Below are positions 1 through 60,105 of a DNA stretch of 60,105 nt, one piece after another. Numbering within the stretch: the stretch's first letter is position 1; each line of letters begins with the position of its first letter. The DNA lies in the IMG/VR virus record IMGVR_UViG_3300034027_000006, positions 1 to 60,105 of that record; one strand, 5' to 3'. The stretch comes from a virus (lineage: Duplodnaviria > Caudoviricetes). The notes under the pieces were generated by a model, which worked only from the letters and a program-made list of their open reading frames with translations, had not been told where the DNA came from and did no database searches. A program made the translations under genes and the position numbers.

Positions 1-127
1 CATAGCAACCGCACCCTAAGCACTGGCTAAACGCATCCCAAACGCATCCTAAACGCATACTAAACGCCAGCCAATCTCACCACATCCTCACCCCGCCCCA
101 CACTTCCCTCTACATAATAAAAAACCC
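1..127. repeat. Left terminal inverted repeat (putative telomere arm)
   Basis: Bases 1-127 are the exact reverse complement of 59979-60105; identity stops at position 128. Confidence 0.97.
28..71 (+). repeat. Four tandem 11-bp repeats inside the terminal repeat
   Basis: TAAACGCATCC / CAAACGCATCC / TAAACGCATAC / TAAACGCCAGC at 28, 39, 50 and 61. Confidence 0.9.
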
Positions 128-5076: not shown

Positions 5077-8000
5077 TTAAATCGTCTCGACAATTATTTC
5101 TACTTGCGATAATTTTAACAGTATTTGCCCGACTGTGTGCTTAACCCAGACTAGCCAATCCTCAGTATTTACAAGTCTTCTAGGTTTGCTCAGGAGTTTG
5201 ACGCGATCGCCAATCTTGATCTCTGGATTGCCTACCTCTGATTTTATGGCAAACTCAAACTCGCGCCAGTTAATGCCGTCTAGTTCTGGCGGTACGGTTG
5301 CCAAGTCTGAGACTTGGGCGAGACTTGGCTCGGACTTGGCGACCTCGATCGGCGCTTCCTGTGCCTTCGCTTCTACTTGCTGTTTCAACACTTCGGGTAA
5401 TACCCAGTCGGTGTTAAATTGCACGTAGCGACGCTCTACCGCTTCATTTATAGCCATCCTGACGGGGCTATCGAGCCAAGTGTCATCTAAGGCATAAGTG
5501 TTAAGTCGCTCGCCGTCTTTCTGCACTTTTTGGCATGGCCCCAATTTTAGGCCCACAACCTCTAAAACTTTCCGCAGGTATTTAATCGAGTCCGTTTTGC
5601 CCTTGTTTGCTCCTTTGGCTATTACTGGCACTTTAAAGCCAAGTGCTGCAATAATTCGCTCGCGCCTGCCGAGCTTGCATAACTCAACTAATTCGGGGCT
5701 ATCTTTATGCCAGACTTTCTCACGGTCTAAAAAGCGCTCTATTTTTAGGTATTGTAGGGCTTTGATTTTTAGATTAGGTGAGTAAAGGTCAGGCAAGTAT
5801 ATAGCCCGTTGAGTCGCGATTTTTGCCCAGTTGTTTTGTTGTCTTTTGTTGGCAGTATCGGGATTGTGGAACATATAGAAAAACTCAGCGGCTCTTATTG
5901 CCTTCGGATCGTCATATTTCAAAAACTCGATAAAATCAGCACTCCAAAGATCGGTTAACTCTATACCTGGTAGCAAGTTTTTGTAACTGTGTTTGATCAG
6001 CTTAACTCGCTCTGGCCAGGTAACATTCCAGCCGCCTGTTAGTTTCTCTGCTTGTTCGTCGGTGATATCTGCGGCCTCGAATATCTCTTTTGCGGTCGTT
6101 TTTTTGACTTCCTCAGATGCCATTTTTAACGCGGCTTCTACTTTCCCATCTGCATAGATAAACTTTTTCTCTAGCTCGTGGCCAGCGTCTTCTAATGCAA
6201 AAATCAAACACTCTTGTAGATTCTTGCGCTCGAATGCTTCTTTTTGAGCGACAGTGATAGCAAAAAGGTTATCAGGATCGGTTTGAGCTTCTGCTATTAG
6301 GTCTAAAAATTGTTGACCTAGCCAGCCTTTATTTAGTCTGAGGTGCGAGATATCCATCTCGGCTAACTCTACTAACTTAGAGGCTGCTGCGTTAATTGTG
6401 TCGAGGTTTGCGTCGGTATTTCCTCTTAAAAATGACTGCTTAGGTATTGATATATGCCAGATACTTTCAGGGCATCGGTTTCGAGCCATTATCTGCATAG
6501 AGTTATCTGTACCGATTACACCTCTAAATAATCCGTAGCTGTGGGCAAAATAGCCGGGGCGATTGAAGTCTATCCCGCTCTCTGCTGTAGGGCTACACAA
6601 TATATAAAAAGGTTGGTGAGCGTCGATCCATTTATTAGCATCATCAAGGCATTTTCTTGCTTCTGTACCAGGGCTAACCGTTTTAGAGTCAATACGCAAA
6701 CCCTCTAGCCCCGCTTCTATTAGTAGTAACTCGATTTGCTCTAACAGTTTTTGTGAGTCACTAAAGACGATAAATGGTTTTGTCGCGGATAACATCGGGG
6801 CAACAAAAGGTGAGAGGTTTTTGTCGTCAAATTTACCCGATTTTGTGGGAGTGCCAAGCAGTATCTCGACTTTAGCTTTAGGTCGCTGCTTTTTGTTTTC
6901 TAGCTTGACTAGCTTTTTGTTTGGCGCTTTGTCTGCCAACCATTTAGCTACCCAGTCAGCAAAATTACCGTCTAGGAATATACAGCAATAAGACAGATCG
7001 ATCGCCTGCCTAAAAAGTTCTAAAGATTCGATCCTATCCTTGCGGTGTGTAGCACTTGCTGCAATGTGTAAAGCTACTGACATCGCCTCATCAATTATTA
7101 CTACTTTATTCCTAAACCATTCGGGATTAGAAAACTTTTTGATCGAGTTCGTACAAAGCGCGAGGCGACTTTGTGGATCTTTCATCATGATCAAAAGTTC
7201 TTCGCGTAAGTGAGAAAAAGACGGGATTCTAGTAGTGAAGTTGTAGATCAGCGAATTGCGAGCAAACAGTGCGATCGCGCCTTTATCCTCAAACGGCCCA
7301 CCCTTTGCGAACAGTCCCTCTAGTTGGCGAGTTTTCCCAGAACCTAGCCCCGATTTTACGGCTAGCATAATGCCTTCGGATGGAGCATCAAAGCTTACAA
7401 ATTCTGACTCTTGGACTAGATCAGGAGTAAATTCTCGCTTATGTATCCACCAACCCCAATCATTAGGACGCTCTGGCGCTTCTGTTTTTGACTGTTCAAC
7501 TGCCTCTAATGCTTTGCGCTCCTGTCGTGGCAGTGTTGACGATTTACGCTTTGGTGGCTCTATTTCTTTCGGCTTTTTATACTGTTCTACAATTTGCCAG
7601 AATTGGTGTAAATGCAGTATTTTAACACCGTCAAAATTTTCTAGTTCGTCTATATCATCAGCAGTTTTATCGACTTGTCCCCACCAAGCAATTAAAGGTC
7701 GGTATCCCTCACGCTCTAACCAATTTATTTGACGTTCTAGCCTGTCAGTAACATGATGGTTAATCACGTCGCCCGCGTCAATTGTCATTATCAATTCACG
7801 GGTTTGATACTTGTCTGTCAAATGTTCAAGCGTGGCTCGTGTGTTTTTTGGCGAGCTTGCATATAAGCCGCCAGCCGCTCCAATTACCGGGGCCTTCAAT
7901 CTTAGATTAGCGATCGCTGGTTTCATGCCCGCGCTGTCTGTTAGCCAGATCTTATCCTGTGGCCCTTCTATCGCCTCGTCGCAACAGGTGATCGGGTTTT

Positions 8001-8685
8001 CCCCGTTGAGATAGGCTGAATTGTCGCGAGATAACCATCTATGGCGGCCCTGACCTTCTGTCACTTCACTAAATCGGACTTGAGCGCCCACTATGCGACC
8101 AAGATGATCGCGCACAGGGCAAAATATGCCCGCGCTCTTGACTTCTAGTTGCCCGCTCCCAAATTTGAAACAGTAGCCGGGTAAATTGTCCGGGTAGCGG
8201 TTGCGTAACTTGTGCCACTTGTCAACTGACCGAAAACCGATTTTTTCGATCTCAGCGTCGCTGAGGCCTCGCGCCCGTAAGCTAGCCCGATCGCTCGCCG
8301 ACAGGCTTAACTCTGATAAAAGTTTTTTATAGTGCAGATCTCGCTCGGCCGCTGGCATCTCATTCTTTAATGCCTCAGCTCGCCGTTTTTCGTCTTCGGC
8401 TTTTATCGCCTCGATTTTTTCCCGATGTGCCGCTCGTGCTTCCTCCGACAATTCTTGCTCGCGGTGAGGGTGAAACGTCGCCCAAATTCCGCTACCCATA
8501 GGAGCCGAGCAAAACCAGACTTGACCGTCAAAACCGTGTATTTTGTCAAATTTTGCCGAATCCGCGTAAGTCTTGCATAAATACGTTATCTGATCGAAAG
8601 CGTTTAGTTTCTCTCGACAGCCCCCGCGAGCGTTACCGCAAACGGGGCAAGGATTGGAGACGCCTGTTGGTCTAAAATCTGGCAT
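5077..8685 (-). CDS. repA: Primase-helicase plasmid replication initiator, CyRepA-like
   Basis: N-terminal Zn finger CPVCG..C, TOPRIM-like DAGD and DDIDE, Walker A GLGSGKT, Walker B IIDEA, SF2 motifs SPTAESGIDF and QIMARNR. Confidence 0.8.
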   Translation of the reverse strand: MPDFRPTGVSNPCPVCGNARGGCREKLNAFDQITYLCKTYADSAKFDKIHGFDGQVWFCSAPMGSGIWATFHPHREQELSEEARAAHREKIEAIKAEDEKRRAEALKNEMPAAERDLHYKKLLSELSLSASDRASLRARGLSDAEIEKIGFRSVDKWHKLRNRYPDNLPGYCFKFGSGQLEVKSAGIFCPVRDHLGRIVGAQVRFSEVTEGQGRHRWLSRDNSAYLNGENPITCCDEAIEGPQDKIWLTDSAGMKPAIANLRLKAPVIGAAGGLYASSPKNTRATLEHLTDKYQTRELIMTIDAGDVINHHVTDRLERQINWLEREGYRPLIAWWGQVDKTADDIDELENFDGVKILHLHQFWQIVEQYKKPKEIEPPKRKSSTLPRQERKALEAVEQSKTEAPERPNDWGWWIHKREFTPDLVQESEFVSFDAPSEGIMLAVKSGLGSGKTRQLEGLFAKGGPFEDKGAIALFARNSLIYNFTTRIPSFSHLREELLIMMKDPQSRLALCTNSIKKFSNPEWFRNKVVIIDEAMSVALHIAASATHRKDRIESLELFRQAIDLSYCCIFLDGNFADWVAKWLADKAPNKKLVKLENKKQRPKAKVEILLGTPTKSGKFDDKNLSPFVAPMLSATKPFIVFSDSQKLLEQIELLLIEAGLEGLRIDSKTVSPGTEARKCLDDANKWIDAHQPFYILCSPTAESGIDFNRPGYFAHSYGLFRGVIGTDNSMQIMARNRCPESIWHISIPKQSFLRGNTDANLDTINAAASKLVELAEMDISHLRLNKGWLGQQFLDLIAEAQTDPDNLFAITVAQKEAFERKNLQECLIFALEDAGHELEKKFIYADGKVEAALKMASEEVKKTTAKEIFEAADITDEQAEKLTGGWNVTWPERVKLIKHSYKNLLPGIELTDLWSADFIEFLKYDDPKAIRAAEFFYMFHNPDTANKRQQNNWAKIATQRAIYLPDLYSPNLKIKALQYLKIERFLDREKVWHKDSPELVELCKLGRRERIIAALGFKVPVIAKGANKGKTDSIKYLRKVLEVVGLKLGPCQKVQKDGERLNTYALDDTWLDSPVRMAINEAVERRYVQFNTDWVLPEVLKQQVEAKAQEAPIEVAKSEPSLAQVSDLATVPPELDGINWREFEFAIKSEVGNPEIKIGDRVKLLSKPRRLVNTEDWLVWVKHTVGQILLKLSQVEIIVETI

Positions 8686-45141: not shown

Positions 45142-46083
45142 ATGAAAATAAAACCCCGATCGATACTCTCACGCTTGACACAGTTTTTGCCATTGCCGCC
45201 ACAGCCTCGGCTTATGATTTTTAACTGTGAAATAAAGCGCGCCCCAGAATACCCCGAGGACTGGCAAGACTACGAACTGCTAGGCTTAAGCGTGTTTGGC
45301 TGCTACTGCGACTGGCTACCAGAGAACCAACGCTGGCAAGTCTTTACAGAGGACAATAATTTTGCGGGTGTTCAGGACTTGATAGATCAAGCTGAGATAA
45401 TCGTCGGATTTAACTCTCTATCCTTTGACGATCGCCTCTGCAAGGCTCACGGCATTAATATCGCGACAACATTCGACTTAATGGTAGAGGTACGCCGAGC
45501 GGTCGGTCAGCCTTTATCTGGCCCGTGTACACGAGGGTATAAACTGCTACATATAGCCGAAAGCAACCTCGGAGCCAACTCGCCCGAAGTCCTACTAAAA
45601 GAAGCCATCCGTCCCGGTCAAGTCCCGGACTTGTGGCGATTAGGTGAACGAGAAAAAGTTATCACCTATTGCCTAAACGAGGTTTTCTTGACGTTTGAAT
45701 TGTATAAGCGCCGCCGAAAATTAGTCGATCCAGTAAGGCATAATCGATTACTGCACTGCGATCCAGATAGTCGAGACTGGCGAGAAATAAGGGCGACTAT
45801 CAAGTGGTTTTTAGCCGAGCAAGTCTTTAGCTTTAGTGTAGATAGGGTAAGCCATTGGCGGGGTGTGGACATCTTAAAAGCGCGTTTAGCCATAGCAGAA
45901 AGCGCCGTTTTAACCTTCCCTGTCTGGATTTTCCCTCAGCACGACTGGCGAGTATATACGGGATTACCCTTTAGACTCACTTCGCAGAATTCTGTCAAAA
46001 CTGATCGCCAGCGCGAGCTTGACGTGATTTATAAACGCCCAACAGACAGCGAGGGAGAGGACGCCGATCCTATTCCGTTTTAA
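45142..46083 (+). CDS. RNase H-like DEDD 3'-5' exonuclease-fold protein
   Basis: FNCEI, IVGFNSLSFD, YCLNEV motifs. Confidence 0.7.
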   Translation: MKIKPRSILSRLTQFLPLPPQPRLMIFNCEIKRAPEYPEDWQDYELLGLSVFGCYCDWLPENQRWQVFTEDNNFAGVQDLIDQAEIIVGFNSLSFDDRLCKAHGINIATTFDLMVEVRRAVGQPLSGPCTRGYKLLHIAESNLGANSPEVLLKEAIRPGQVPDLWRLGEREKVITYCLNEVFLTFELYKRRRKLVDPVRHNRLLHCDPDSRDWREIRATIKWFLAEQVFSFSVDRVSHWRGVDILKARLAIAESAVLTFPVWIFPQHDWRVYTGLPFRLTSQNSVKTDRQRELDVIYKRPTDSEGEDADPIPF

Positions 46084-46590: not shown

Positions 46591-46709
46591 GTCTCGGCTC
46601 GCTTTGTAAGGTATGATATCTTATCCTACAACATACGACAGCTTTAATCCGTCACCCTGATATCAGGGTAAACTATGGCATTTTACTAACCTATAACAAA
46701 CACTGATCG

Positions 46710-48907: not shown

Positions 48908-48931
48908 TCTCTGAATAGTCCCGCTTTTTAC

Positions 48932-48958
48932 ATCTTATCCTGTATACTAGGATAAGAT
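48932..48958. promoter_or_regulatory. Palindromic operator upstream of the protelomerase gene
   Basis: ATCTTATCCT-7-AGGATAAGAT with perfect arms. Confidence 0.8.
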
Positions 48959-51900
48959 GTTTTTTATGACAGTTCAGATCATGGCAGCTAAATCGACAGA
49001 ACCCAAAAGACCATTGTTTAAGTCAGGCGATATAGTCTACTACCGCAACGGCAACAAATTTGAGCAGGCAACAGTAGATCAAGATCAGCCTTCACGCATG
49101 GCTAAAATTATCTGGATTTACTACAATCGCCCCGGCAATAGAAACCCGCATAAATTCAAGGCTTTTTTACAAGAGGTTTACACGGTCGCCGAGTATGAAG
49201 CCCTAAAAGATCAGCCAGTCGCAGCACTCTACAAAAAAGGCGACGCTCTGATATTGACTGAGGACGGCGAATCGTACCCGGTACGCTGCGAGCGAGATCA
49301 AATTTCAGCCAGTAGCGATCGGCTTTATGTAAGCGGTTATCACCTCGAAAACACTTGGGTAGATATCGCCAAGCTGTCACCAGCAGAGGAAGTCACACCA
49401 GCAGAGGAAGTCACACCAGCAGAGGAAGTCACACCAGCAGAGGAAGTAGCACCAGTCGCACCAGTCGCACCAGTCGCACCAGTCGCACAGACTAAAACAG
49501 TCAAGAAACTTTTTGAAAAAGGAGATCTAGCCTATTTAAAAACGCCTACAGATTACACCCCGGTGACTGTAACTATTAGCCAGCGACATAGCAAATCTAA
49601 AAAAATCGAGGTCTTATCCTTTGGTCGCAAGATCGACGTTCTAGTCAAAGACTTGATAACAGTTGCAAAATATCAAGAAATCACAGGCGATAATAGCCCT
49701 GTGCAATTAGACAAACCGCGCCGCTTATTTCAGGCGGGTGACTGGTGTTACTGGCAAGCTCGCCCCGGCAATGAACCCCACAACAAAAGGATCGTCAAAT
49801 GCGACCACAACCAGCACAAAAACGATCATATTGTCTGGGTTGTGGAACTTAAAGGCAATTGGCGCGATCGTTTTGGAGTCGATAGCAACTTACTCGGATT
49901 GATCACAGATCCGGCAAAGCTAGCCGAGCTAGACGCTAACGAGAAAGCGATCGAGGCAAGGGTAGACGAGATCAAGCGCAAGGAAGCAACAGACACAGAG
50001 GTAGCGCTCGCCGATGTTATTCCGATAGCAGAAACGGTCGCCGATGCTATCCCAGCAACCGAAACAGCGATCGCAGAGGTCGCAGCAGTTGCCGGCCCGC
50101 CTGAGTGCTACCCCGATGGCATCCGACGCGATAGCGCGATCGGGCGGATACGGGCTGAGGATGAGCGAGCCATTGCTGCAATGTTGAAAGCAGGCGATCG
50201 CCGTTGGTGGCGAGCAAGTGTCGGTAATTATCGATATGCTTGCGTAGAAAAAGACCAAAAAAGTCCAACCTCTAAAAAAGTTCAGATCTTGCACTGGCGC
50301 GACGATCGCCCCGGCGTTAGTCCCGAAGGCGTGGGCCCGGTTTGGGTAAACATCTCTGATCTACTGACAGAGGAGCAATATAAAGAACAAAAGCAGAATG
50401 AGGCTAAAAAGCGCGTTGAAGCTTTGTTACCTGCACGGGATGAGGAAACACCAGCCGAAAGCGTGACGGTAGCCTTCACGTCGCCGGAATCGTTCGCTAA
50501 AGTAATGTTGAAGGCTGGCAACAACGCCGGAGAGATTAGCCGACTGTGCGATCGATTGCTAGCCCTGCCAATGTTCGATAGAACTCGGATTAACGAGCGC
50601 ACAAAATTAACTCGCCTCGGCCCTTATAGTCGAGCGCTAGAGGCAGAGATCAAGCAATCAGGGTTTGAGCTTATTCGCCATACAAACGCGGTAGTCTGGC
50701 GAAGAAAAGACGGCAGCGAGCAGTTACGTCACTATTACTACAAGCTCGTCGGGCTGATGGATTATGACTGGGACGCTGACAACCAAAAAGCAGCCGAGAA
50801 AGTAATCGCAAAGCTAGACAATCAAGTCGCAAATATTGACAGCGAGACTTACATTAAGACTGTTGAGACTCTGCTATGGTTTGACGATCCGATAAAAGTT
50901 TTAGGCGGTCTAGTTGGCGCTAGCGGTCGCCGGATTGTGGAACTAATAACGCTCGGAAATTTCACCGAGATCGAGAATCAAACCGATCGAGTAGTGTTTC
51001 ACGGGCAAGCTAAAAAGCGAGATAAACCGAGCGATCCTTACGAGATTTATTTGCTCGGATGCACCGCTAAAGACTTTTTAGCTAAGCTTGATTTTGTGCG
51101 CGACAGTGATGAGATGAAAGCAGCCTATGAGGGTCTAGACCCCGATAGCTCTGATTTCTTAAAGAGACTATCAGATCGGCTGAGGGTGCAAGTCAATCGC
51201 GAGGCGGTCGGCCCTGCGTTTGAATGGCTACAAAGTCGCGAGGGTGAGGAGCGAGCAACAACTAAAACACTAAGATCGACTTGGGCTGCTGTTGTCACTA
51301 GCAAGTATTGCCCGCCAGAAACTAACCCGCTGCTGTTTACTAGCCGACTGCTCGGACACTTTACGGGGTCAGTTGAAAGCATGGCAGACACGCTGAACTA
51401 TATCGACAGCGTGGCCGCCAAGTCCGACGAGCCAAACTTAGAAAAAGTCGAAGAGGTTCAAAGATGGCAGAGCATTGTAGACGGAATAATAGTCAAGCAA
51501 CCTAACGCGACATCAGGAGTCGAAACAGCGACAGCAGAGACAATCCAAGATCCAACAGAAACAGAAGAGGAAGCAACGCCAGCGCTCGATTATGTTCAAT
51601 TTGTAGAAGATGAAGCGGGCGATCGTCACAAGCGCGATTTTTACGAGTCGCCAGTCTGGGCATCTCTTGCGATGCTCGAATATGGCGGAATCACCGGGAC
51701 TGTCGGCGAGTGCTGCAACGGATACGGGGCAATAAGCCGAATATTTCAAAAGGCAAATTATGCAGTCTGGACTAATGATATTGACCCGGAGAAACCCGCA
51801 GATCACCATATAGACGCAACTGTCGAGGAATTGTGGGACAGCTTACCTGATGCTGACTGGATTATCTCAAATCCACCTTACGGGAAGCTATCAGCCCCCA

Positions 51901-52661
51901 TCGTTATCAACGCTTTCAAAAAAGCCAAAAAAGGCATCGCAATGGTTTTAAAGATGAATTGGTGGGAGTTATGCCAAGATCGCAAGCAGTTCTTAAAAGA
52001 ACATCCACCAACAGGCTTTATAAACCTGCCGAGATATTGTTACCGCAAGGCTACCGCGACCGGGAAGTGGGCAACAGATGAAGCGCCGACAGTGATCTAT
52101 ATCTGGGATAAATCAATAACCCACGGGCTAACTCAAACGATACCTTTACCAGCCGACGAGCTTAGACTGTTTTATCGCACACCTGACGAAACACCAGAAC
52201 TCGAAAAAATCGAGACAGAGATAGCCGACATCATGGCTAAAAAGCTAGAGGCGGTCAAATCTGTCGAAGTCAAGCCGACTGTAACGATCGATGTGGCAGA
52301 AAGTAAACCAATCGAAACAATAAAAGCAACTAAAACCGAACCTGTAGAAACTGATCCGGCTTCAGTGCCGAAAGTAAGTCGAAAGGCGAAGGAAGTTAAG
52401 CCTAAAAAACCACGCTTAACGATGGAAGAAAAGCTCGAAAAAGTTAGCGAAAAAATGCGAGCTTTCTTAGAGAAAAATGCAGCGTTAGAGAAACCCGATC
52501 GCTGGTTTGTTAGTCAGAATATTATAGCCCGTGTCGCCGGAGTAGGTCACGATCTGGCTAACGAATGGCTTAACTTGAATAAGCCCTTACTTGACGCACA
52601 CAACCTCGGCTTAAACCGCTCGGAGCAAAACCGGGGGCGAAAATTCGAGAATCTAAATTAG
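48957..52661 (+). CDS. Protelomerase (telomere resolvase) fused to N-terminal KOW/Tudor-like repeats and a C-terminal amino-methyltransferase domain
   Basis: SGRR.VE (aa ~657), F.GQAKKR (~686), LRS.WA (~773), LLGH (~801), TLNY (~815); then DFYESP, ECC.G.GAI, NDID, IISNPPY (~972). Confidence 0.85.
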   Translation: MFFMTVQIMAAKSTEPKRPLFKSGDIVYYRNGNKFEQATVDQDQPSRMAKIIWIYYNRPGNRNPHKFKAFLQEVYTVAEYEALKDQPVAALYKKGDALILTEDGESYPVRCERDQISASSDRLYVSGYHLENTWVDIAKLSPAEEVTPAEEVTPAEEVTPAEEVAPVAPVAPVAPVAQTKTVKKLFEKGDLAYLKTPTDYTPVTVTISQRHSKSKKIEVLSFGRKIDVLVKDLITVAKYQEITGDNSPVQLDKPRRLFQAGDWCYWQARPGNEPHNKRIVKCDHNQHKNDHIVWVVELKGNWRDRFGVDSNLLGLITDPAKLAELDANEKAIEARVDEIKRKEATDTEVALADVIPIAETVADAIPATETAIAEVAAVAGPPECYPDGIRRDSAIGRIRAEDERAIAAMLKAGDRRWWRASVGNYRYACVEKDQKSPTSKKVQILHWRDDRPGVSPEGVGPVWVNISDLLTEEQYKEQKQNEAKKRVEALLPARDEETPAESVTVAFTSPESFAKVMLKAGNNAGEISRLCDRLLALPMFDRTRINERTKLTRLGPYSRALEAEIKQSGFELIRHTNAVVWRRKDGSEQLRHYYYKLVGLMDYDWDADNQKAAEKVIAKLDNQVANIDSETYIKTVETLLWFDDPIKVLGGLVGASGRRIVELITLGNFTEIENQTDRVVFHGQAKKRDKPSDPYEIYLLGCTAKDFLAKLDFVRDSDEMKAAYEGLDPDSSDFLKRLSDRLRVQVNREAVGPAFEWLQSREGEERATTKTLRSTWAAVVTSKYCPPETNPLLFTSRLLGHFTGSVESMADTLNYIDSVAAKSDEPNLEKVEEVQRWQSIVDGIIVKQPNATSGVETATAETIQDPTETEEEATPALDYVQFVEDEAGDRHKRDFYESPVWASLAMLEYGGITGTVGECCNGYGAISRIFQKANYAVWTNDIDPEKPADHHIDATVEELWDSLPDADWIISNPPYGKLSAPIVINAFKKAKKGIAMVLKMNWWELCQDRKQFLKEHPPTGFINLPRYCYRKATATGKWATDEAPTVIYIWDKSITHGLTQTIPLPADELRLFYRTPDETPELEKIETEIADIMAKKLEAVKSVEVKPTVTIDVAESKPIETIKATKTEPVETDPASVPKVSRKAKEVKPKKPRLTMEEKLEKVSEKMRAFLEKNAALEKPDRWFVSQNIIARVAGVGHDLANEWLNLNKPLLDAHNLGLNRSEQNRGRKFENLN
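49378..49488 (+). repeat. In-frame tandem repeats, 18 bp x4 and 9 bp x4
   Basis: Encode (PAEEVT)n(PVA)n, a linker. Confidence 0.9.
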
Positions 52662-52723: not shown

Positions 52724-53698
52724 ATGAGCGAATCACAGCAAGTCCTCGAACACATAAAAATTTTAGATCCTCTAGGGATCTATAGGTCTATGGATGAAGT
52801 GACGGCTAGAAACTTAAAACCTGAACATTATAAACAATGGCAACAGGTTCAAGCCCTTTTTAGCTACCTGCTAGAACTACACAACAGATCAACAAAGGAG
52901 AATACAAAAATGCCAGAATTAACACCGGATCAAGTTGATATTTTGTCAGAGATTGAAGAGACGATCCAAAAACTGACTACAATAGCTAGCCGAGTAGAAA
53001 GGGGTAAACCTATAGGTAGCTTATTGTCGATAAAGTCTAATCGACTAAATTATTTATTTGGTCGGTATCAAATGCGTTTAGATCTAGAGTCAAGCCTGGA
53101 ACCCCGCAAAACAGCCGAGGAAATTACATCCGAAGCGTTGAGAGCAGCCGAAAAACGCGAACTAGCCGCAGAAATCAAAAAACTGGAGGCTGAGAAAAAA
53201 GAGCTAGAGGCAGAGAGATCGCAGATAGAAGTAGAAAGGAAACAGTTAGAGGCAGAGCTAAGGGAGTTAGAATCGGAAATAGAAGGAGCCACCCCAGAGA
53301 GCGAAGAAGACTGGTTAAAACGTATAGGAGGGGAAAACACAGAGCAACAAATATCGAGAATCGTTGAGGAGTGCATAGAAAGAACTAAGAGAGCATACCC
53401 GGAGATCTGCAAAGCGTTTCAAGACATCAAAATCAATTATGTCTTTAAACCGTCTGATGAAGTCCCAACCGTGACAACCGAACAATTAATAGAAAATCAC
53501 GAGATCTGGGAAAAAGAACAAAGGGCTAAACGGTCAAAAAAAGCAGAGGAAGACGAGGCGAAAGACGATCGAATCTCTGTTGAATCACTAGCTAATATGT
53601 CAGCGGCTGACGCACTAGCACTCGATCCTAAACAGCACAAAAAATGGCTCGAAATACAGCGAGAGCGCTATAACTCTCAGTATGATGATTTTCAATAA
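52724..53698 (+). CDS. Coiled-coil protein with a repeated terminal motif
   Basis: Charged heptads; M....A..L.P..(Y/H)K.W...Q at both ends. Confidence 0.7.
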   Translation: MSESQQVLEHIKILDPLGIYRSMDEVTARNLKPEHYKQWQQVQALFSYLLELHNRSTKENTKMPELTPDQVDILSEIEETIQKLTTIASRVERGKPIGSLLSIKSNRLNYLFGRYQMRLDLESSLEPRKTAEEITSEALRAAEKRELAAEIKKLEAEKKELEAERSQIEVERKQLEAELRELESEIEGATPESEEDWLKRIGGENTEQQISRIVEECIERTKRAYPEICKAFQDIKINYVFKPSDEVPTVTTEQLIENHEIWEKEQRAKRSKKAEEDEAKDDRISVESLANMSAADALALDPKQHKKWLEIQRERYNSQYDDFQ

Positions 53699-53703
53699 TT
53701 GAC

Positions 53704-53748
53704 AAGTAAATAGCCGTAGCGTTTGCCAATCGCTACGGCTATTTACTT
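53704..53748. terminator. Long hairpin between convergent genes
   Basis: AAGTAAATAGCCGTAGCG...CGCTACGGCTATTTACTT. Confidence 0.8.
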
Positions 53749-53759
53749 AGTAGGAAGCT

Positions 53760-54821
53760 TTAACGATCGGTTGCAAGTTCTGCCGACATACTCCAACAAA
53801 AAACAATCTCTCGAACAATCTGGAAAAACCGCCCGTCTAGATTAGATTCCTCGCGCTGCTCGTCGGTACTATAAAAAGCCTGGGTGAGGTGATCGACGGC
53901 TTCAGTAACTGCACTCGAATAGTCTAGGCGGGTAGCACTGTTAAGAAAGTCAGACAAGTCTAGAGGCGGTTGGCTTAAAGATACCTCAATCGGGCGAGCA
54001 AAATTTTGAGCTAGGTAGCCTTTAAAACGTCTTACTTTCCCCATCATTTTTAAGGCTTCTAGCTCCTCAAAAAATGCGTTAAACTCTGCTAGTCGTTCAG
54101 CCGCCTGCTCGCGATAGACTGGCAAAATTCTGTAGTATTCCTCGACAAGTGGATTAGATTTATCGGCACGATCTAACGCGGGCGAGGTTTGAAGTTCGCC
54201 GCCTGCTGCCTTCTTTTGTCGTGCCAACCTGCGAGCGTTTTTAGCTTGTCGCCTGCCGCTAGCGTTCGATACTGACTGGCTAGTCAATGGCTGGCCGATG
54301 TCTACCCCATCCGCCACCAAGCAAGCAAGATCATTTTTAGCGCCTGGTATATTCTGGGCCGCTTCCTCTTTAACCCAGTTGATATATTGCCGCTCGTCAA
54401 AGCTAGGATTCTTAGCCGCCGCCCAATCAAGCCAAGCGCGAGTAAAAGTCGGTGGCTCGACATCATTGACAGCGATAGCACTTGCAGCGGCTGTCGATGC
54501 CTCCATCTGGACTTGTTCGTTATCGGCTCCGAGTCTTTCTGCCTTCGATTCTGCGATCGCTGTCACTAACTCATCAGGAAGTGGATCGCCCGGTTGATGC
54601 GTGGCCGGTAGCCCTAAAACTTCATTAGCCCAAGATTGCTCGGACTGTTCAGCCGACGAGTTAACGCCGATAGTGATGCGTAGCTCCTGCACTCTCTGAT
54701 TAACCATACTGATCACCCAATCTTTTAATTGTTCTGGCACTCTGACCGGGGCCGTTTTATAGCCCTCCCACTTCGGGACGTTTGGGATCAAATTGTCTAA
54801 GGAAGCGGCGGCAATACTCAT
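53760..54821 (-). CDS. Protein with N-terminal ribbon-helix-like motif
   Basis: PKW...KT.PVRVPE.L...V. Confidence 0.65.
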   Translation of the reverse strand: MSIAAASLDNLIPNVPKWEGYKTAPVRVPEQLKDWVISMVNQRVQELRITIGVNSSAEQSEQSWANEVLGLPATHQPGDPLPDELVTAIAESKAERLGADNEQVQMEASTAAASAIAVNDVEPPTFTRAWLDWAAAKNPSFDERQYINWVKEEAAQNIPGAKNDLACLVADGVDIGQPLTSQSVSNASGRRQAKNARRLARQKKAAGGELQTSPALDRADKSNPLVEEYYRILPVYREQAAERLAEFNAFFEELEALKMMGKVRRFKGYLAQNFARPIEVSLSQPPLDLSDFLNSATRLDYSSAVTEAVDHLTQAFYSTDEQREESNLDGRFFQIVREIVFCWSMSAELATDR

Positions 54822-54882
54822 AAAACCTTAAATCCCGATCAAAACACCAATTCGCAGATCATACACCCCCACAAAGTCCGAG

Positions 54883-55068
54883 TCAAGTCTCGGACTTGCT
54901 GGCATCCTCCTGAACACTGGAATAATGCAGCTTAGCATACTCGGCAATAAAAGCTTTTATCCGAGGGATTAATTCAACTGGTACGCGGATCGATTCCGTC
55001 TTGATACCGGGCCCGTATTTAGCTTTACCCGGTCTAAGATTCTTGATCGAGTTTTTGTGTACTGGCAT
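54883..55068 (-). CDS. Small ribbon-helix DNA-binding protein
   Basis: NS.KNL.P...KT.SIRVP.EL...I; GACTT array overlaps its 3' end. Confidence 0.6.
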   Translation of the reverse strand: MPVHKNSIKNLRPGKAKYGPGIKTESIRVPVELIPRIKAFIAEYAKLHYSSVQEDASKSET

Positions 55069-55214
55069 AGGTTAACGTCTCCTGTTCGCCGGATTTGAGG
55101 TCATGGCGGCTATGGTATGAGCAAATATAGCCCAAGTCAAGGCACGATCGCCGAAAACCTTGAGAACGAGCGATCGCAGCGCTCTAAGGCTAAGCTCGCA
55201 AAAAAATATTTTCG

Positions 55215-55251
55215 ATCTTGTCCTGTTTTTTGCAGGATAAGATGATATATT
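55215..55251 (+). promoter_or_regulatory. Palindromic operator plus -10
   Basis: ATCTTGTCCT-9-AGGATAAGAT-GATATATT. Confidence 0.75.
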
Positions 55252-55286
55252 GAAATTGTCCACAGTTGACCCACCGAAAAACAATC

Positions 55287-55943
55287 ATGATTGACACCAT
55301 AAAGGCAAACCACGACGGGCAAGGCAATTTTGAGTCTCGCAGCTATAAAATAGAGCGCTTATTTGATGCTGAGGCTAAGCCATCTCACGAGTATCTGAAA
55401 TTAACCCAATCAGTGAAAGGCGATTATTCTGTCGGGGTTTTTAACTCGATAACAGGTACGTCTTATTACACAACCTTTCACGATAATTACGCGGCGGCTT
55501 ATTACACTTTCAAGACAAAGGCGATCGAAAGAAACGGCGGCAACGATCTCTATAAAAGTCAATACGGCGAGACTCGCGAAGAAAGGCAGCAAGCGCTCGG
55601 CCTCTACTTCGATCGGCTTTGTTACAACGGTCGATCTATAACTGAATTCGAGGATTTTTACGTCGGCAGTTACACCAGTCGGCTTCAATTTATCCACAAT
55701 GGTTTACTCAGTGCCTTTGCAGCCTCTGACTTTCCTAGCCTTAAAGTAAGGTATACCGATTTAGACTTCAAAAAGATAGAGGATCGATGGTTCGATGAAG
55801 TATCGGGCGATCTGACTGATATCGCAATAGAGAGAGCGTCCGGCATCGTTTACCATATCTACCAGATCCCCAAAAACCGAGCTATAGAGCTAGGGAATAA
55901 CGAGAAAGAATCAAGTAAGTTATTTGACATACTAGGAACCTAG
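55287..55943 (+). CDS. Early protein with ArdA-like (antirestriction) C-terminal similarity
   Basis: FED.Y.G.Y.S...F...D...I..R.F pattern; start revised to ATG 55287. Confidence 0.45.
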   Translation: MIDTIKANHDGQGNFESRSYKIERLFDAEAKPSHEYLKLTQSVKGDYSVGVFNSITGTSYYTTFHDNYAAAYYTFKTKAIERNGGNDLYKSQYGETREERQQALGLYFDRLCYNGRSITEFEDFYVGSYTSRLQFIHNGLLSAFAASDFPSLKVRYTDLDFKKIEDRWFDEVSGDLTDIAIERASGIVYHIYQIPKNRAIELGNNEKESSKLFDILGT

Positions 55944-55966
55944 AGCGCGAAATAAGAAGTAGCCAG

Positions 55967-55991
55967 AAGCCCCGCAGATAGGGGCTTTTTT
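55967..55991 (+). terminator. Intrinsic terminator
   Basis: AAGCCCC...GGGGCTTTTTT. Confidence 0.8.
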
Positions 55992-56022
55992 AATTGGCAA
56001 GTAAAGTTTAAAAAAGTTTTCG

Positions 56023-56058
56023 ATCCTATCCTGAGTTTCTGGGATAAGATGGTATAGT
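56023..56058 (+). promoter_or_regulatory. Palindromic operator plus extended -10
   Basis: ATCCTATCCT-8-GGGATAAGAT-GGTATAGT. Confidence 0.8.
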
Positions 56059-56095
56059 GGAAGAGACAGGACAAAAAAAACAAAGCGAATCAATT

Positions 56096-57562
56096 ATGCC
56101 TTATCGTGAAATCCTCGAAAGAATTGCTCGCGCCATCGCAAAAAATCACGGTTTCGACTACACCGGATCGGATATGTTGGCGATACAATCCCCGCGAGCA
56201 TACTTGTACACATCCGACGCTGAAGTCGCTTTAGAAGTAATCGATCAATACCTCGGAGAACACGAGATCGGGTTTGCAGATCTAAAGGTTCCCAGAGATA
56301 ACGTAACGCCTGTGACGCCTACTTCGGCTAGCCAATCAGATCAGGTTTTCCCAACTTGGGAGCAACTGACAGAATGGGTAGAAAAACTTTACAAATTCTG
56401 GAATTGTGACGCGAGCGATCGTTTCTTGTGTGAACAATACGAACTCGACAGAAAGGAGGCTTTAAGGGCTTACTTAAACCCAGAGGAATTAAGCGCTTTT
56501 TATGACCACTTAACTACTCGCGCCAAACACTTACACGAGACAACCTCAAGAGGTGATATCGACAAACTGACCTTATGTATTGTCAGAATGTTAAACCCTT
56601 ACCCCAACAAAATCGAGGTCAAGCTTTATTTTAACGATGAGATGATCTGCGTTGGTGGCAAATGCTGCGACCACTGGGCAACTAGCCACGGCGGACGCTA
56701 CACCCGCGAGATTAATTGCGTTATTCCGACAGGACTAAACCCGATTCTAATGTCATTAACCGAGATATTGCAGCATGGTAAAGACGCATCGATCGAAGTT
56801 TGGCAAGCGCCACAAGTCGAACCGGAAAAACCGAAAAACGCAACAAAAACAAAACCTACCGAGCAGTCAAGGATAGAGTTGTATAAAAACGGCAAATTGC
56901 TAGAGGTACAGCTTTACTTTGACTCTGGCGATATCTGCCTCGGAGTGCATGGCAAAAATTTTCTAATCAGTTATAAAGGTATGTTCGCTTACTCTTGGGC
57001 GGGTTACATCAAAACAGGCTTTAACCCGATTGGTAAGCATATCGAGGCAATTGGCGCGGACGGTACACACAAGACGCTTAGACCAGAAAAAAGACCGCAA
57101 CATACCCATTACAAATCGCTTACAAAATCCGAGCGAGAGCTACTTAATTGCTTTGTAGGACGCGAAATCGAGTTTGAGCGCTTCCGAGTCATTAAGCGAC
57201 ACTTGCTAGAGGTTGAAGGCTTTAAGGTTGGCGGGCTAATTTCTAGTCAGTCAGATTGCAAGGGCTGGTTTGTAACCGCTGGCAAGGATAAGGCCGCGCT
57301 GTTTTGGACTCCCTCGAATGGCTGGCAAATTGAGCCGAGACACAATCAAACTGAGTTAACCGGAGCGTTTGAAGGTTACGACTTAATCGAGGCTCTAGAG
57401 GCTAACAATATCGAGGTCAACGGAGTATCGGCTAATGACTGGAATAACGCCCGCGACGAGGAAGCCGAGGCCGAGGCGGTTGCCCTACAAATGAAAGAAG
57501 CCAAAAAAACCACGAAAAAACAGCCTGTGTTAGATATCCCGTGGGTTGATCTTCAGAAGTAG
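56096..57562 (+). CDS. Early multidomain protein with two copies of a LYF..IC.G..G(F/L)NP domain
   Basis: Start revised because the track GTG lies in the -10 box. Confidence 0.7.
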   Translation: MPYREILERIARAIAKNHGFDYTGSDMLAIQSPRAYLYTSDAEVALEVIDQYLGEHEIGFADLKVPRDNVTPVTPTSASQSDQVFPTWEQLTEWVEKLYKFWNCDASDRFLCEQYELDRKEALRAYLNPEELSAFYDHLTTRAKHLHETTSRGDIDKLTLCIVRMLNPYPNKIEVKLYFNDEMICVGGKCCDHWATSHGGRYTREINCVIPTGLNPILMSLTEILQHGKDASIEVWQAPQVEPEKPKNATKTKPTEQSRIELYKNGKLLEVQLYFDSGDICLGVHGKNFLISYKGMFAYSWAGYIKTGFNPIGKHIEAIGADGTHKTLRPEKRPQHTHYKSLTKSERELLNCFVGREIEFERFRVIKRHLLEVEGFKVGGLISSQSDCKGWFVTAGKDKAALFWTPSNGWQIEPRHNQTELTGAFEGYDLIEALEANNIEVNGVSANDWNNARDEEAEAEAVALQMKEAKKTTKKQPVLDIPWVDLQK

Positions 57563-57635
57563 ATAACACGCCTCAAATCGCAAAATAGCCTCGCTCGCGG
57601 GGCTATTCACAAACCTAACAACCTTACCTAAAATA

Positions 57636-57923
57636 ATGTCAAAAATTCAAGACAGGCCCGATAATCATTTGATCGCTACTATGCTCTGTATCAGCTTAGA
57701 AGCACGGCGAATCACAAATCATCTACAAGCGGTAGCCCCTGAGAATAAATCTAAGCTCAAAAGACTGCAAGGCGAGGACGCCAAAATTGGGGCTAATCCT
57801 AGGCAGTGGATCGAAACTTGGATCAAGATGACTAGAGAGCGACTAGACAAAATTGAGCAGCTAGTTAGCGAAGTTTGGCCAGACAAGCCACAGGAAGAAA
57901 ACGACGAGATAGAAGACAGTTAA
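57636..57923 (+). CDS. Hypothetical protein
   Basis: Flanked by hairpins at 57584-57607 and 57951-57973. Confidence 0.65.
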   Translation: MSKIQDRPDNHLIATMLCISLEARRITNHLQAVAPENKSKLKRLQGEDAKIGANPRQWIETWIKMTRERLDKIEQLVSEVWPDKPQEENDEIEDS

Positions 57924-58020
57924 AAAACTAACCCGTGTCAACGCTTCAGCCAGCCCCGATCGCGGGGCTGTTTCTATTGTGGCTACCATGCCAACCGCGA
58001 GAGGTAAAAAAAACTTTTTG

Positions 58021-58056
58021 ATGTTATCCTGAGAATTCAGGATAGGATGGTATACT
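58021..58056 (+). promoter_or_regulatory. Palindromic operator plus extended -10
   Basis: ATGTTATCCT-8-AGGATAGGAT-GGTATACT. Confidence 0.8.
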
Positions 58057-58088
58057 AGAATAGACGGACAAACAAAGCGAGCAAAAAA

Positions 58089-59096
58089 ATGACTAATCAA
58101 AAACCCGTAGGCTATACCCGGCAAATCTTAAAGCTTAACAGCTTGACCTCTAAAGAGCTTGATAAAGAATTGTCAGCAGCAAAAGTCAAAGGCCGTTCTA
58201 CAGCTAAAACAAAAGTCGAAAAAATCGAGCTTTTAATGGTCAATGTTTACGGCTACCCCGCTGGCTATAAAGGCATCGGATATACAGGCGACTTCGGCGA
58301 GCCAAGTTTTAACTCCCCCGAAGTTAAACCAACAATCACGCCAGAAACCGAAACAACAGCCCCGGCAAAAGTTGAGCGCGTCCGAGTCAAGCTATATTTT
58401 GACATTAACAATATTTGCCTCGGCGGTTGCTGCGATGATTGCTGGCTACCTCTTTACACGGGCGAGGAGTATGTCGCTAGTGAGTTTTTCAAGCTCACAC
58501 CCGGTTTTAATCCAGTGGGAAAAACTGTTAAAGAACTGCAACAAATTGAGCAAGACAGCAACCCATATAAAATCGCAGCAACAGCAACAGCGGTCGCGCT
58601 AGAGGCAAAATTAACAGCCGAGAAAGCAGCATATATCGCAGAAGTAGAATCGAACGGATTAGAAGCCAAAGCAGAAGCGACAAGAGCAGCCGAAATCGTA
58701 GCAACAGCCAAAGCGCAAAAGACAGCCCGAAGCGTTGCAGCTATAGAGGCTATGGGCTTAGACGTTCAAGAAGCAAACCATCTAGCCGAGGCAGCTAAAA
58801 AATACCCTGCACTGGCAAAAATCAAAATCGATTATCCTAACCTAGATATTTCTGAGCTAGAGGCAGCTTTTAACAATGATGAGATTTTAGAGATCAAACA
58901 AATTCAAAAAGGAGCTATCCCGATTTTTTTAGTGTTGCGAGTTTGGGGTAAAAATGAATGGGTAACACATCACTACAACGCAGCAAATAACGGGTTTTCG
59001 CTCGGCTGGTATTTTAAAGATCTCCAGAAGGCACAGGATAACTATAGGAAGCGCAAGCGGGGCGAATGCTCACCACTTGGCCCGGTAACAAGATAG
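58089..59096 (+). CDS. Early protein: Rho-N/HEH-like N-terminus plus a third LYF..IC.G domain
   Basis: LTSKEL...K.E.IELL; VKLYFDINNICLGGCCDDCW...GFNPVGK. Confidence 0.7.
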   Translation: MTNQKPVGYTRQILKLNSLTSKELDKELSAAKVKGRSTAKTKVEKIELLMVNVYGYPAGYKGIGYTGDFGEPSFNSPEVKPTITPETETTAPAKVERVRVKLYFDINNICLGGCCDDCWLPLYTGEEYVASEFFKLTPGFNPVGKTVKELQQIEQDSNPYKIAATATAVALEAKLTAEKAAYIAEVESNGLEAKAEATRAAEIVATAKAQKTARSVAAIEAMGLDVQEANHLAEAAKKYPALAKIKIDYPNLDISELEAAFNNDEILEIKQIQKGAIPIFLVLRVWGKNEWVTHHYNAANNGFSLGWYFKDLQKAQDNYRKRKRGECSPLGPVTR

Positions 59097-59124
59097 AAAA
59101 CCAAACAGTCAGACAAATAATATC

Positions 59125-59160
59125 ATCCTATCCTGATAACACAGGATAGGATGGTATACT
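59125..59160 (+). promoter_or_regulatory. Palindromic operator plus extended -10
   Basis: ATCCTATCCT-8-AGGATAGGAT-GGTATACT with perfect arms. Confidence 0.85.
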
Positions 59161-59198
59161 ATATTAAGCAAACAAAATCACTCACCGAGAATTACATC

Positions 59199-59867
59199 AT
59201 GACCACTGAAACCGCCTCAGCCCCTACCGCTAAATTCATCAACTGGAATAAAGCTATTCAAGTTAAAAACGGATTTTTACCCGCTGACCTCTCTGTCGCT
59301 TTAGGTTCTGAAAAGTTACAGAATATCTGGTTAAACGTCCGCAAGCGAACAATCGCCGAAGTAGCTAACGAAGTAAGAACACTCTGGATCGAGGCTGTAG
59401 CAATCGAAAAAGGTTTGGACATCACGACAGCAACTAAGCGAGTAGAGGCTTACATCGAACGCTATGATAATCCGGTTAACTGGATCTATGTAGAAGCCGA
59501 TGGATCGTGGGTTATGCCTGGTGATCCAATGTTCGCTAGCACTCCAGACACTGAAGTAGCAGCCGAAGTCGCCGAAGTAGCACCCCTGACAGAGAAAGAG
59601 ATCAAAAGCGCCAAAAAGGTTAAAAAACTAATCAAGTCAGATCCAGTAAACGAGCAAATTTTCTGGTATATCATCCAAAATCGCCCTATTCACTCGGTCG
59701 GATTTTGCAACACTGCCGGAATCGACACTAGAACAATGCAAGCAAGGGCCCGCACCATACAATCAGCAATTAAAGACTCAATCAAAAACGAGACTGTTGC
59801 GACTCATCTAATCCGCATTATGGGTATCGAGTCAAAAACCGAAGGCGGATGGCTTAAAACGCGATAA
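59199..59867 (+). CDS. Hypothetical early protein
   Basis: Start revised to ATG 59199 because the track start lies inside the promoter. Confidence 0.65.
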   Translation: MTTETASAPTAKFINWNKAIQVKNGFLPADLSVALGSEKLQNIWLNVRKRTIAEVANEVRTLWIEAVAIEKGLDITTATKRVEAYIERYDNPVNWIYVEADGSWVMPGDPMFASTPDTEVAAEVAEVAPLTEKEIKSAKKVKKLIKSDPVNEQIFWYIIQNRPIHSVGFCNTAGIDTRTMQARARTIQSAIKDSIKNETVATHLIRIMGIESKTEGGWLKTR

Positions 59868-59978: not shown

Positions 59979-60105
59979 GGGTTTTTTATTATGTAGAGGG
60001 AAGTGTGGGGCGGGGTGAGGATGTGGTGAGATTGGCTGGCGTTTAGTATGCGTTTAGGATGCGTTTGGGATGCGTTTAGCCAGTGCTTAGGGTGCGGTTG
60101 CTATG
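59979..60105. repeat. Right terminal inverted repeat (putative telomere arm)
   Basis: Exact reverse complement of 1-127. Confidence 0.97.

Follow-up and report, generated by a model that had tools for sequence, protein, structure and literature searches.

A telomere resolvase with an inserted amino-methyltransferase domain and N-terminal beta-barrels, encoded by a probable cyanobacterial telomere phage

Telomere resolvases (protelomerases) are the key enzymes of hairpin-ended replicons and serve as tools, for example for closed linear DNA; to our knowledge, all characterised members are single-function enzymes. Does this hold for the virus record IMGVR_UViG_3300034027_000006 (Duplodnaviria; Caudoviricetes) of IMG/VR, the whole length of which, 60,105 bp, is referred to here as the window? 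At 48957-52661 on the + strand the window carries a gene for a protein of 1234 amino acids (aa), P0001, in which a first-pass annotation made from the letters alone had recognised a protelomerase fused to a DNA methyltransferase (MTase) and preceded by five KOW/Tudor-like repeats, and for which it had proposed that telomere resolution is coupled to methylation. We find that the gene is intact, that the MTase is inserted into the resolvase between its catalytic core and its C-terminal domain, and that this architecture is conserved in a family of homologues. The reading that we favour, with moderate confidence, is that of a bifunctional protein with two mechanistically independent chemistries, in which the MTase protects or marks the phage replicon.

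In P0001, five Tudor/KOW-like beta-barrels are followed by the resolvase core, an amino-MTase with an NPPY motif and a C-terminal helical domain. The parts of the gene are given below, with independent E-values (i-E) for profile matches and the predicted local distance difference test (pLDDT) as the measure of model confidence.

48957..52661, + strand: whole gene, 1234-aa multidomain protelomerase-MTase P0001 (open reading frame [ORF] list and translation)
49017..49187, + strand: beta-barrel module 1, aa 21-77 (profile i-E 3.8e-8; model strands 26-70; Tudor/Agenet/KOW fold matches)
49221..49376, + strand: beta-barrel module 2, aa 89-140 (profile i-E 4.9e-11; model strands 97-142)
49378..49502, + strand: tandem DNA repeat encoding a disordered, length-polymorphic PAEEVT/APV linker in the interval of modules 2 and 3 (TRF periods 18 and 9)
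49509..49661, + strand: beta-barrel module 3, aa 185-235 (profile i-E 6.5e-6; model strands 191-235)
49725..49901, + strand: beta-barrel module 4, aa 257-315, divergent (weak profile match of 0.054 over aa 257-289; model barrel 263-315, pLDDT ~86-94)
49911..50090, + strand: long predicted helix, aa 319-378, in the interval of modules 4 and 5 (DSSP on the model; confidence drops toward the helix end)
50175..50375, + strand: beta-barrel module 5, aa 407-473 (profile i-E 1e-31; model barrel 415-465)
50469..51422, + strand: protelomerase core, aa 505-822, comprising N-core and catalytic domain, with R659, K686, K770, R773, H801 and Y815 (PF16684, TelA matches, Foldseek)
51423..51623, + strand: linker that joins resolvase and MTase, aa 823-889, acidic and disordered (pLDDT < 50, model residues 304-392)
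51624..52268, + strand: inserted amino-MTase, aa 890-1104, with gamma-type motif order and NPPY at 51870-51881 (PHROG 799, Rossmann fold, motifs)
52428..52649, + strand: C-terminal helical domain, aa 1158-1231, common to stand-alone protelomerases (helices with pLDDT ~90; profile matches)

The single uninterrupted frame of 1234 codons reported at first pass was borne out by the ORF list and the translation. Identical pieces of the fusion gene are present in run X3, and a ~95% identical strain in run X4, a soil metagenome, differs within the ORF by indels of 9 nt and 3 nt only, which keep the frame, a further 1-nt indel lying 4 nt beyond the stop codon. Neither a stop nor a frameshift was seen, and homologues keep the domains fused rather than always encoding them separately. 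The linker between resolvase and MTase (51423..51623) contains no in-frame ATG, GTG or TTG, so that the MTase could hardly be produced alone from within it. Together with the conservation described below, these data establish P0001 as a genuine protein under purifying selection and of bifunctional architecture, from which we infer the two activities.

The resolvase core was identified by Pfam PF16684 (ResT-TelK_cat), which matches aa 625-808 with 82.7 bits against a cut-off of 27 (87.2 bits in the search of the whole record), by TelA chains as the best PDB sequence matches of P0001, and by Foldseek matches of the resolvase part to TelA (4f41, E 1.5e-9, target-normalised TM-score 0.53), TelK (2v6e, 6.6e-8) and ResT (8vs5, 1.1e-4). 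All sequence and fold matches to TelA, TelK and ResT are confined to this part of the protein, in agreement with the first-pass statement that characterised protelomerases have no MTase domain. The R, K, R, H, Y set that had been read in this order corresponds to R658/R659, K686, R773, H801 and Y815, which are invariant in 13 aligned members. The active-site residues of TelA were taken from the list in PMC3558466, and their numbers were related to the chain index by a uniform shift of 20, which sets all six TelA residues on the correct letters; the phmmer alignment places TelA R255, K286, Y363, R366 and H394 on R659, K686, K770, R773 and H801, respectively.

The MTase domain is matched by only two PHROG families, PHROG 799, annotated as "DNA methyltransferase" (aa 887-1059, E 9.5e-21), and PHROG 11619. 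The S-adenosylmethionine (SAM)-binding and NPPY motifs described at first pass are present as VGECCNGYG (916-924), NDIDP (940-944) and NPPY (972-975), and E918, C920, G922, D941, D943 and N972-Y975 are invariant among the aligned family. Motif I precedes motif IV, (D/N)PP(Y/F), an order that we take to denote the gamma-type N6-adenine class. Foldseek returned the Rossmann MTases TrmM (7wm5), METTL5, CamA and KsgA; matches in BFVD comprise phage N6-adenine MTases and one neighbour named "predicted RNA methylase," and those Atlas neighbours that have a family are assigned to MTS, Eco57I or N6_Mtase on a minority of members. Mean pairwise identity is 0.62 for the MTase, 0.45 for the resolvase core, 0.38 for the C-terminal domain, and 0.30 for the last N-terminal module. 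Since motifs I, II, and IV are invariant and the domain is the best conserved of the protein, the MTase is probably active. The segment behind it, initially described as helix-turn-helix (HTH)-like, is a conserved helical domain, the HTH label itself coming from a weak language-model lead (score 0.84).

Five N-terminal modules had been proposed, and a profile built from the conserved last one (module 5) and run against P0001 supports four of them, the remaining one, module 4, being backed by the structural model. AlphaFold, run on aa 1-508, models the modules as five separate small beta-barrels (mean pLDDT of the model, 79). No Pfam family, KOW, Tudor or Agenet included, matches aa 1-500 at E <= 1, and the fold neighbours of the barrel array in the PDB (Foldseek, best E 7e-7) are the Agenet array of AGDP3, the Tudor domains of SETDB1 and 53BP1, and the KOW arrays of Spt5. 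These resemble P0001 in their tandem small SH3-like barrels, at an identity of 8-17% and with no sequence-family match. Of the 18 fused proteins, 17 retain module 5, and the one that lacks it, P0018, is N-terminally truncated; every complete fused homologue thus has this module. The PAEEVT/APV linker has pLDDT < 50 at aa 145-180 of the model and varies in length: P0002, a 99% identical twin of P0001, has 15 aa fewer, and the X4 strain lacks 9 nt at 49418. Other assemblies break at the tandem repeat that encodes it (49378-49502).

The architecture recurs in other genomes, as the first-pass annotation had advised checking. A word-indexed search retrieved 12 relatives of 807-1283 aa, 9 of 9 scanned relatives carry both the MTase and the protelomerase-like PHROGs, and 11 more distant aligned proteins are 35-45% identical to P0001. 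When 1.84 billion cluster representatives were searched exhaustively with a profile, 4203 matched at E <= 0.001; 158 collected proteins were sorted by four domain profiles. The full order of modules, resolvase, MTase and C-terminal domain was found in 17 of these 158 (P0001 and its twin included), and resolvase, MTase and C-terminal domain without modules in 1 (P0018); 28 have the resolvase with the C-terminal domain, 15 the resolvase alone, 95 the MTase module without the resolvase core, and 2 the MTase with the C-terminal domain. Candidates for split or minimal gene forms were rejected: P0018 starts with Leu and is a fragment, as is P0019 (338 aa, MTase and C-terminal domain), which starts within the ASCH segment of P0011-like proteins. 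The other MTase with a C-terminal domain, P0065, is only 124 aa long. Among the fused relatives, P0009 has entries at NCBI and the JGI, the latter naming it "hypothetical protein." None of 50,697 GenBank phage records contains the fused form; 13 of them match, all inside aa 887-1062, the MTase part. Likewise, the BFVD fold matches hit one part or the other, none of them being fused, and a search of genome contigs gave matches to the MTase part alone.

How the two enzymes came to be joined can be read from the distribution of the C-terminal domain, the profile of which matches 28 of 43 stand-alone resolvases versus 2 of 97 proteins that have the MTase and lack the resolvase core. The C-terminal domain thus belongs to the resolvase, and the MTase is an insertion between core and C-terminal domain rather than an appended tail. 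The spacers of 28 stand-alone relatives contain no recognisable degenerate MTase (best profile E 0.19), and blastp found no match between fused linkers and stand-alone spacers. In a tree of 60 resolvase cores, from which the near-duplicate P0002 was omitted, the 17 fused rows make up one side of a branch with a support of 98 in the Shimodaira-Hasegawa-like approximate likelihood ratio test (SH-aLRT), suggesting one insertion event on the resolvase side. In the tree of the MTase (111 rows), the smallest group with all fused rows has 21 tips.

The linker between core and MTase ranges from 6 to 609 aa across relatives. In P0001, the MTase is flanked by disordered linkers of 66 and 52 aa, the second disordered segment extending over about aa 1105-1155, and the interdomain geometry is not confidently predicted (predicted TM-score [pTM] 0.39). 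Because the linkers around the MTase are disordered and variable in length, the protein resembles beads on a string rather than a fixed two-site machine. In a sub-branch formed by P0008, P0009, P0011, P0012 and P0016, the resolvase-MTase linker holds an ASCH domain (PF04266/PHROG 3193); that of P0008 has an additional C5-MTase-like piece (PHROG 1008), and P0013 has a similar insert by alignment. This linker appears to act as a landing pad for nucleic-acid-related domains.

Outside the fusion, the MTase occurs in viral contigs as a free protein of 205-217 aa, at 42-45% identity for the closest of these forms. PF16684 is not matched above its cut-off in five viral records with the free module, two of which are 100% complete. 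Among longer proteins with the module, 6 of 10 scanned have it joined to C5-MTases and 1 of 10 to RNase HII, and in P0023 we read it as joined to a ParB-like segment. The MTase is a mobile phage module. Since the same module occurs without the resolvase and with other fusion partners, methylation is more readily seen as a general phage function, in protection or marking, than as a step of telomere resolution.

The genomic setting bears on what such a function might be. The record encodes a large terminase, a portal protein (weak match), a major head protein, a tail sheath, a tape measure protein, and a helicase; one replicon thus unites the structural genes of a tailed phage with those for a protelomerase and a large replication protein. 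HIP1 (GCGATCGC), which marks cyanobacteria, is found 27 times versus 0.64 expected in the window, and 26 times versus 0.53 expected in G001, a collinear viral relative of 52.5 kb with inverted-repeat ends that matches 35 of the 81 ORFs of the window. Sequencing runs with the sequence are labelled biocrust and soil metagenomes, and no RNA run was listed among them. The host is probably a cyanobacterium and the virus a temperate, N15-style telomere myophage living as a linear plasmid. Of the 64 six-base palindromes, 27 are missing, versus 0 in 20 shuffles, a sign of restriction-site avoidance; among four-base palindromes, GGCC, CCGG, GCGC, and CATG are depleted and GATC is the sole over-represented one (462 observed versus 373 expected). 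PF00145, PF01555, and PF02086, for the C5, N6_N4, and D12 classes, respectively, have no match in the record, which leaves the fused MTase as the only recognisable DNA MTase of the phage.

Under the favoured reading, the resolvase core (aa 505-822), with Tyr815 as the nucleophile and an active site formed from R659, K686, R773 and H801, would cut and reseal the palindromic junction left by copying a hairpin-ended linear replicon. An active DNA MTase, SAM-dependent, N6-adenine-specific and drawn from a mobile phage family, would have entered, in a single event, the flexible linker that joins the core to the C-terminal domain, the latter being the putative ancestral DNA-binding part of the resolvase, and one to five Tudor/SH3-like barrels would have been gained at the N-terminus. 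The MTase would ride on a gene expressed whenever the linear plasmid is maintained (by analogy with the biology of N15, the tel gene would be constitutively needed), and the DNA-binding parts of the resolvase would tether it to the phage DNA, where it would protect or mark the replicon in a host lineage under very heavy restriction pressure. Four points favour independence of the two chemistries: the mobility of the module, its occurrence in phages that lack a resolvase, the floppiness and variability of its linkers, and the extreme restriction avoidance that has shaped the genome.

Several observations weigh against this reading or parts of it. It is from motifs, folds and conservation that we infer the activity of both domains, and in the phmmer alignment the TelA nucleophile Tyr405 falls on T812, three residues ahead of the invariant Y815, an offset that we regard as a small alignment uncertainty. 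Curated Pfam and NCBIfam MTase models do not match the MTase domain, and an RNA substrate is possible because the closest solved folds include the RNA MTases TrmM, KsgA and METTL5. Within the fused group of the MTase tree there are 4 non-fused rows, one of them a fragment of a fused protein, and the starred branches force at least 3 changes. The linker between MTase and C-terminal domain measures -6 to 52 aa, that is, the MTase abuts this domain in most members, and the fusion has been retained through deep divergence (35-45% overall identity), which coupling would likewise predict. Sampling of 401 cyanobacterial genomes yielded 0 matches spanning both parts, 15 genomes carrying a separate MTase or a separate resolvase; because the fusion is absent from them, the host assignment draws on HIP1 and, for each half of the protein, on its nearest relatives. 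Finally, the tel site and the true ends lie outside the window, and no methylatable sites can be read there.

These observations give some room to a coupled machine, the arrangement originally proposed, in which the MTase, held between the resolvase core and a C-terminal domain that binds outer DNA, methylates adenines in or near the telomere or junction, and the methylation state after replication (full, hemi or none) permits or prevents resolution, the start of replication, or protection of the ends. The insertion point between two DNA-binding parts of the resolvase, the short distance to the C-terminal domain in most members, the high conservation of the MTase, the persistence of the architecture on one old branch, and the presence of reader-like Tudor/Agenet folds, plus ASCH in some relatives, within the same protein would all fit it. 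The proposal is nevertheless not supported so far, as the same module, found apart from the resolvase core in 95 of the 158 proteins, is present in complete phages that have no protelomerase, its fusion partners are unrelated, the linkers vary and both are long and disordered in P0001, the interdomain geometry is not confidently predicted, and target sites are not readable with the telomere sequence outside the window; we consider coupling unlikely, if worth keeping in view. In a specific version of it, which we find rather improbable, the MTase writes N6-methyladenine (m6A) at or beside the junction and the barrels, with ASCH in some relatives, help to read the DNA or its modification state, giving an epigenetic licence for resolution or replication; the enzyme could then tell fresh, hemi- or unmethylated junctions from resolved ends.

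An MTase-like domain that acts on RNA or protein, or that is a structural or nucleic-acid-binding spacer, would explain the missing match to curated DNA-MTase families, the tRNA and rRNA m6A MTases at the top of the solved fold neighbours, and the BFVD neighbour with an RNA methylase name. A dead spacer does not fit a best-conserved domain in which all SAM-binding and catalytic motifs are invariant, and a DNA substrate is suggested by the phage family to which the domain belongs, with its repeated fusions to C5 DNA MTases, by the name DNA methyltransferase that both PHROG and GenBank annotators give to relatives, and by CamA and phage N6-adenine DNA MTases among the fold neighbours; a non-DNA role therefore seems to us quite improbable. 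That the fusion is an artefact, with adjacent genes joined by a sequencing or assembly error, or a decaying pseudogene, is a concern in that the window is a metagenome assembly and other assemblies break at a repeat inside the ORF. We give this virtually no credence, as the same domain order is found in 17 further proteins from other assemblies, one of them in the 52.5-kb contig G001, the X3 pieces are identical and the X4 strain has in-frame indels only, the catalytic residues are invariant, and the linker offers the MTase no start codon.

The window also bears on the ends of the replicon. IMG/VR classes the record as of inverted-terminal-repeat type, and CheckV estimates a completeness of 72%. 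Its terminal repeat arms are the following.

1..127, no strand: left terminal inverted repeat arm (127 nt, 100% complementary to 59979-60105)
59979..60105, no strand: right terminal inverted repeat arm, not a true end (run X2 contig)

The terminal repeat of G001 is perfect over 99 nt and then imperfect to ~175 nt. De Bruijn assemblers commonly use 127 and 99 as their longest words, and an exact 127-nt repeat with an abrupt stop is expected if a unique segment sits between longer repeats in opposite orientation. A contig of 1698 nt from run X2 carries the terminal repeat, stops at its inner edge (59979) and extends 1570 nt past 60105. As the repeat continues beyond 60105, the window is an incomplete replicon, with the hairpin apex or tel site outside it. 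The X2 contig has a depth of 113, and X2 covers just 2 of the 30 depth bins of the stretch compared; a contig so deep in a run that barely covers that stretch indicates that the terminal repeat is common to another abundant element. The first 38 nt of the window had 0 exact matches in viral and metagenome contigs. Within each terminal repeat, TRF detected 3.7 tandem copies of an 11-nt unit (CTAAACGCATC), at 27-67 and 60039-60079; at <=1 mismatch the unit has 9 matches in the window versus 1.49 expected, and runs X1 and X4 have contigs in which the same array lies next to different flanks. The array is a candidate binding array of a telomere-associated protein. As an internal tel site we considered and rejected a 45-bp near-perfect palindrome at 53704-53748 (22-nt arms, 1-nt spacer), which sits between convergent ORFs, 1 kb past the fusion gene on its downstream side, and which we read with more confidence as a bidirectional terminator; a consensus terminator scan did not list it, and it may instead be a protein-binding site.

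The fusion gene lies 7.4 kb from the contig end in this record and 1.4 kb from one end of G001. From the gene to the right end runs a 7-kb arm (52724-59867) that has no counterpart in G001 and almost no family matches, and that looks like a variable cargo region beside the end; the 3.3 kb at the left end have no G001 match either. A 1202-aa replication protein (5077-8685, - strand; PHROG 4913, 3712) adjoins the large terminase (3311-4774, - strand) near the left end, an arrangement kept in G001. None of the 10 ORFs flanking the fusion gene has a Pfam match. Weak PHROG matches nearby are polymerase/exonuclease-like at 45142-46083 and RecE/SbcC-like at 52724-53698 (E ~2e-3), and the ORFs at 58089-59096 and 59151-59867 match no PHROG.

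A possible regulatory element overlaps the start of the gene.

48930..48960, no strand: 31-bp palindrome with the core TATCCT-N7-AGGATA, overlapping the annotated ATG; candidate operator (motif search)

Because the annotated ATG falls within this palindrome, translation may actually begin at one of the later ATGs, 48966 or 48981. TATCCT-N7-8-AGGATA occurs at 48936-48954, 58025-58044 and 59129-59148 (3 matches versus 0.03 expected), each time immediately 5' of a gene, and looser copies of the palindrome are found at 2308-2341, 46618-46651 and 56015-56050. These palindromes look like a candidate operator of a common regulator.

Comparison with known systems sets off what is new in P0001. TelA of Agrobacterium, TelK of phiKO2, TelN of N15, and ResT of Borrelia have the PF16684 domain in common with it, TelA, TelK, and ResT being the best matches, and the likeness to TelA extends to invariant equivalents of R255, K286, R366, and H394 and to an invariant Tyr closely behind the His. 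P0001 is about twice as long as these four enzymes, however, with the MTase inserted after the catalytic domain and five barrels ahead of the core, and it differs from TelA by a Lys in place of Tyr363 and a His-Tyr spacing of 14 instead of 11, at a sequence identity of ~20%. N15, PY54, phiKO2, VP882, phiHAP-1, and VHML are N15-like telomere phages, the prophages of which are linear plasmids with hairpin ends. Like the record, they have a tailed-phage structural module plus a protelomerase and a very large replication protein, and ORF1 of VHML is a BFVD fold neighbour, although tblastn gave no match of the resolvase part to N15-like phages at E 1e-5. The present phage differs from them in that its host signature is cyanobacterial, that its protelomerase gene lies 7.4 kb from one contig end (1.4 kb in G001), and that its ends are long, incompletely assembled inverted repeats. 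For the MTase, stand-alone members of PHROG 799 in Rhizobium phage vB_RleM_PPF1 (NC_025427) and Listeria phage LMSP-25 (NC_024360) represent the same domain family; they are ~180-230 aa long, contain NPPY, and are annotated as "DNA methyltransferase." Whereas PHROG 799 relatives are free or joined to a C5-MTase, a ParB-like segment or RNase HII, the module of P0001 sits inside a resolvase.

Protelomerases of cyanobacteria have also been described. A preprint (bioRxiv 10.1101/2024.11.13.623437) reports TelT, of 81.7 kDa, from the telomeric transposon LoPAST of Leptolyngbya ohadii, which carries at its C-terminus an extension with predicted outer-DNA binding, and states that cyanobacterial protelomerases "have different domain architectures"; its main text contains 0 words beginning with "methyl." By this description, TelT resembles P0001 in being cyanobacterial and bigger than classical protelomerases, and differs in belonging to a Tn7-like transposon instead of a tailed phage. 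Its characterisation also makes the range of 440-640 aa that the first-pass annotation gave for protelomerases slightly dated. A Pantanalinema metagenome-assembled genome encodes large unfused forms of both parts, a PF16684 protelomerase in an 838-aa frame (L078, G002:C2:23666-27196) and, on another contig, the MTase module in an 832-aa frame (L089, G002:C73:95823-99266). That no described example was known at first pass agrees with the literature on protelomerases that we searched, which covered the closest preprint but not its supplements.

A resolvase with an inserted MTase and N-terminal barrels is thus a conserved design that is undescribed in the searched literature. The finding delimits a small MTase family, abundant in phages, which curated Pfam and NCBIfam models did not recognise here, and it points to undescribed cyanobacterial telomere phages or plasmids from soil crusts. 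The fused lineage is a natural test of the interplay between end resolution and DNA modification. If the m6A licence were true, it would amount to epigenetic control of telomere resolution or replication in a linear prokaryotic replicon; if the two activities are independent, P0001 would still be a clear case of a defence-related module lodged in a constitutively needed maintenance gene.

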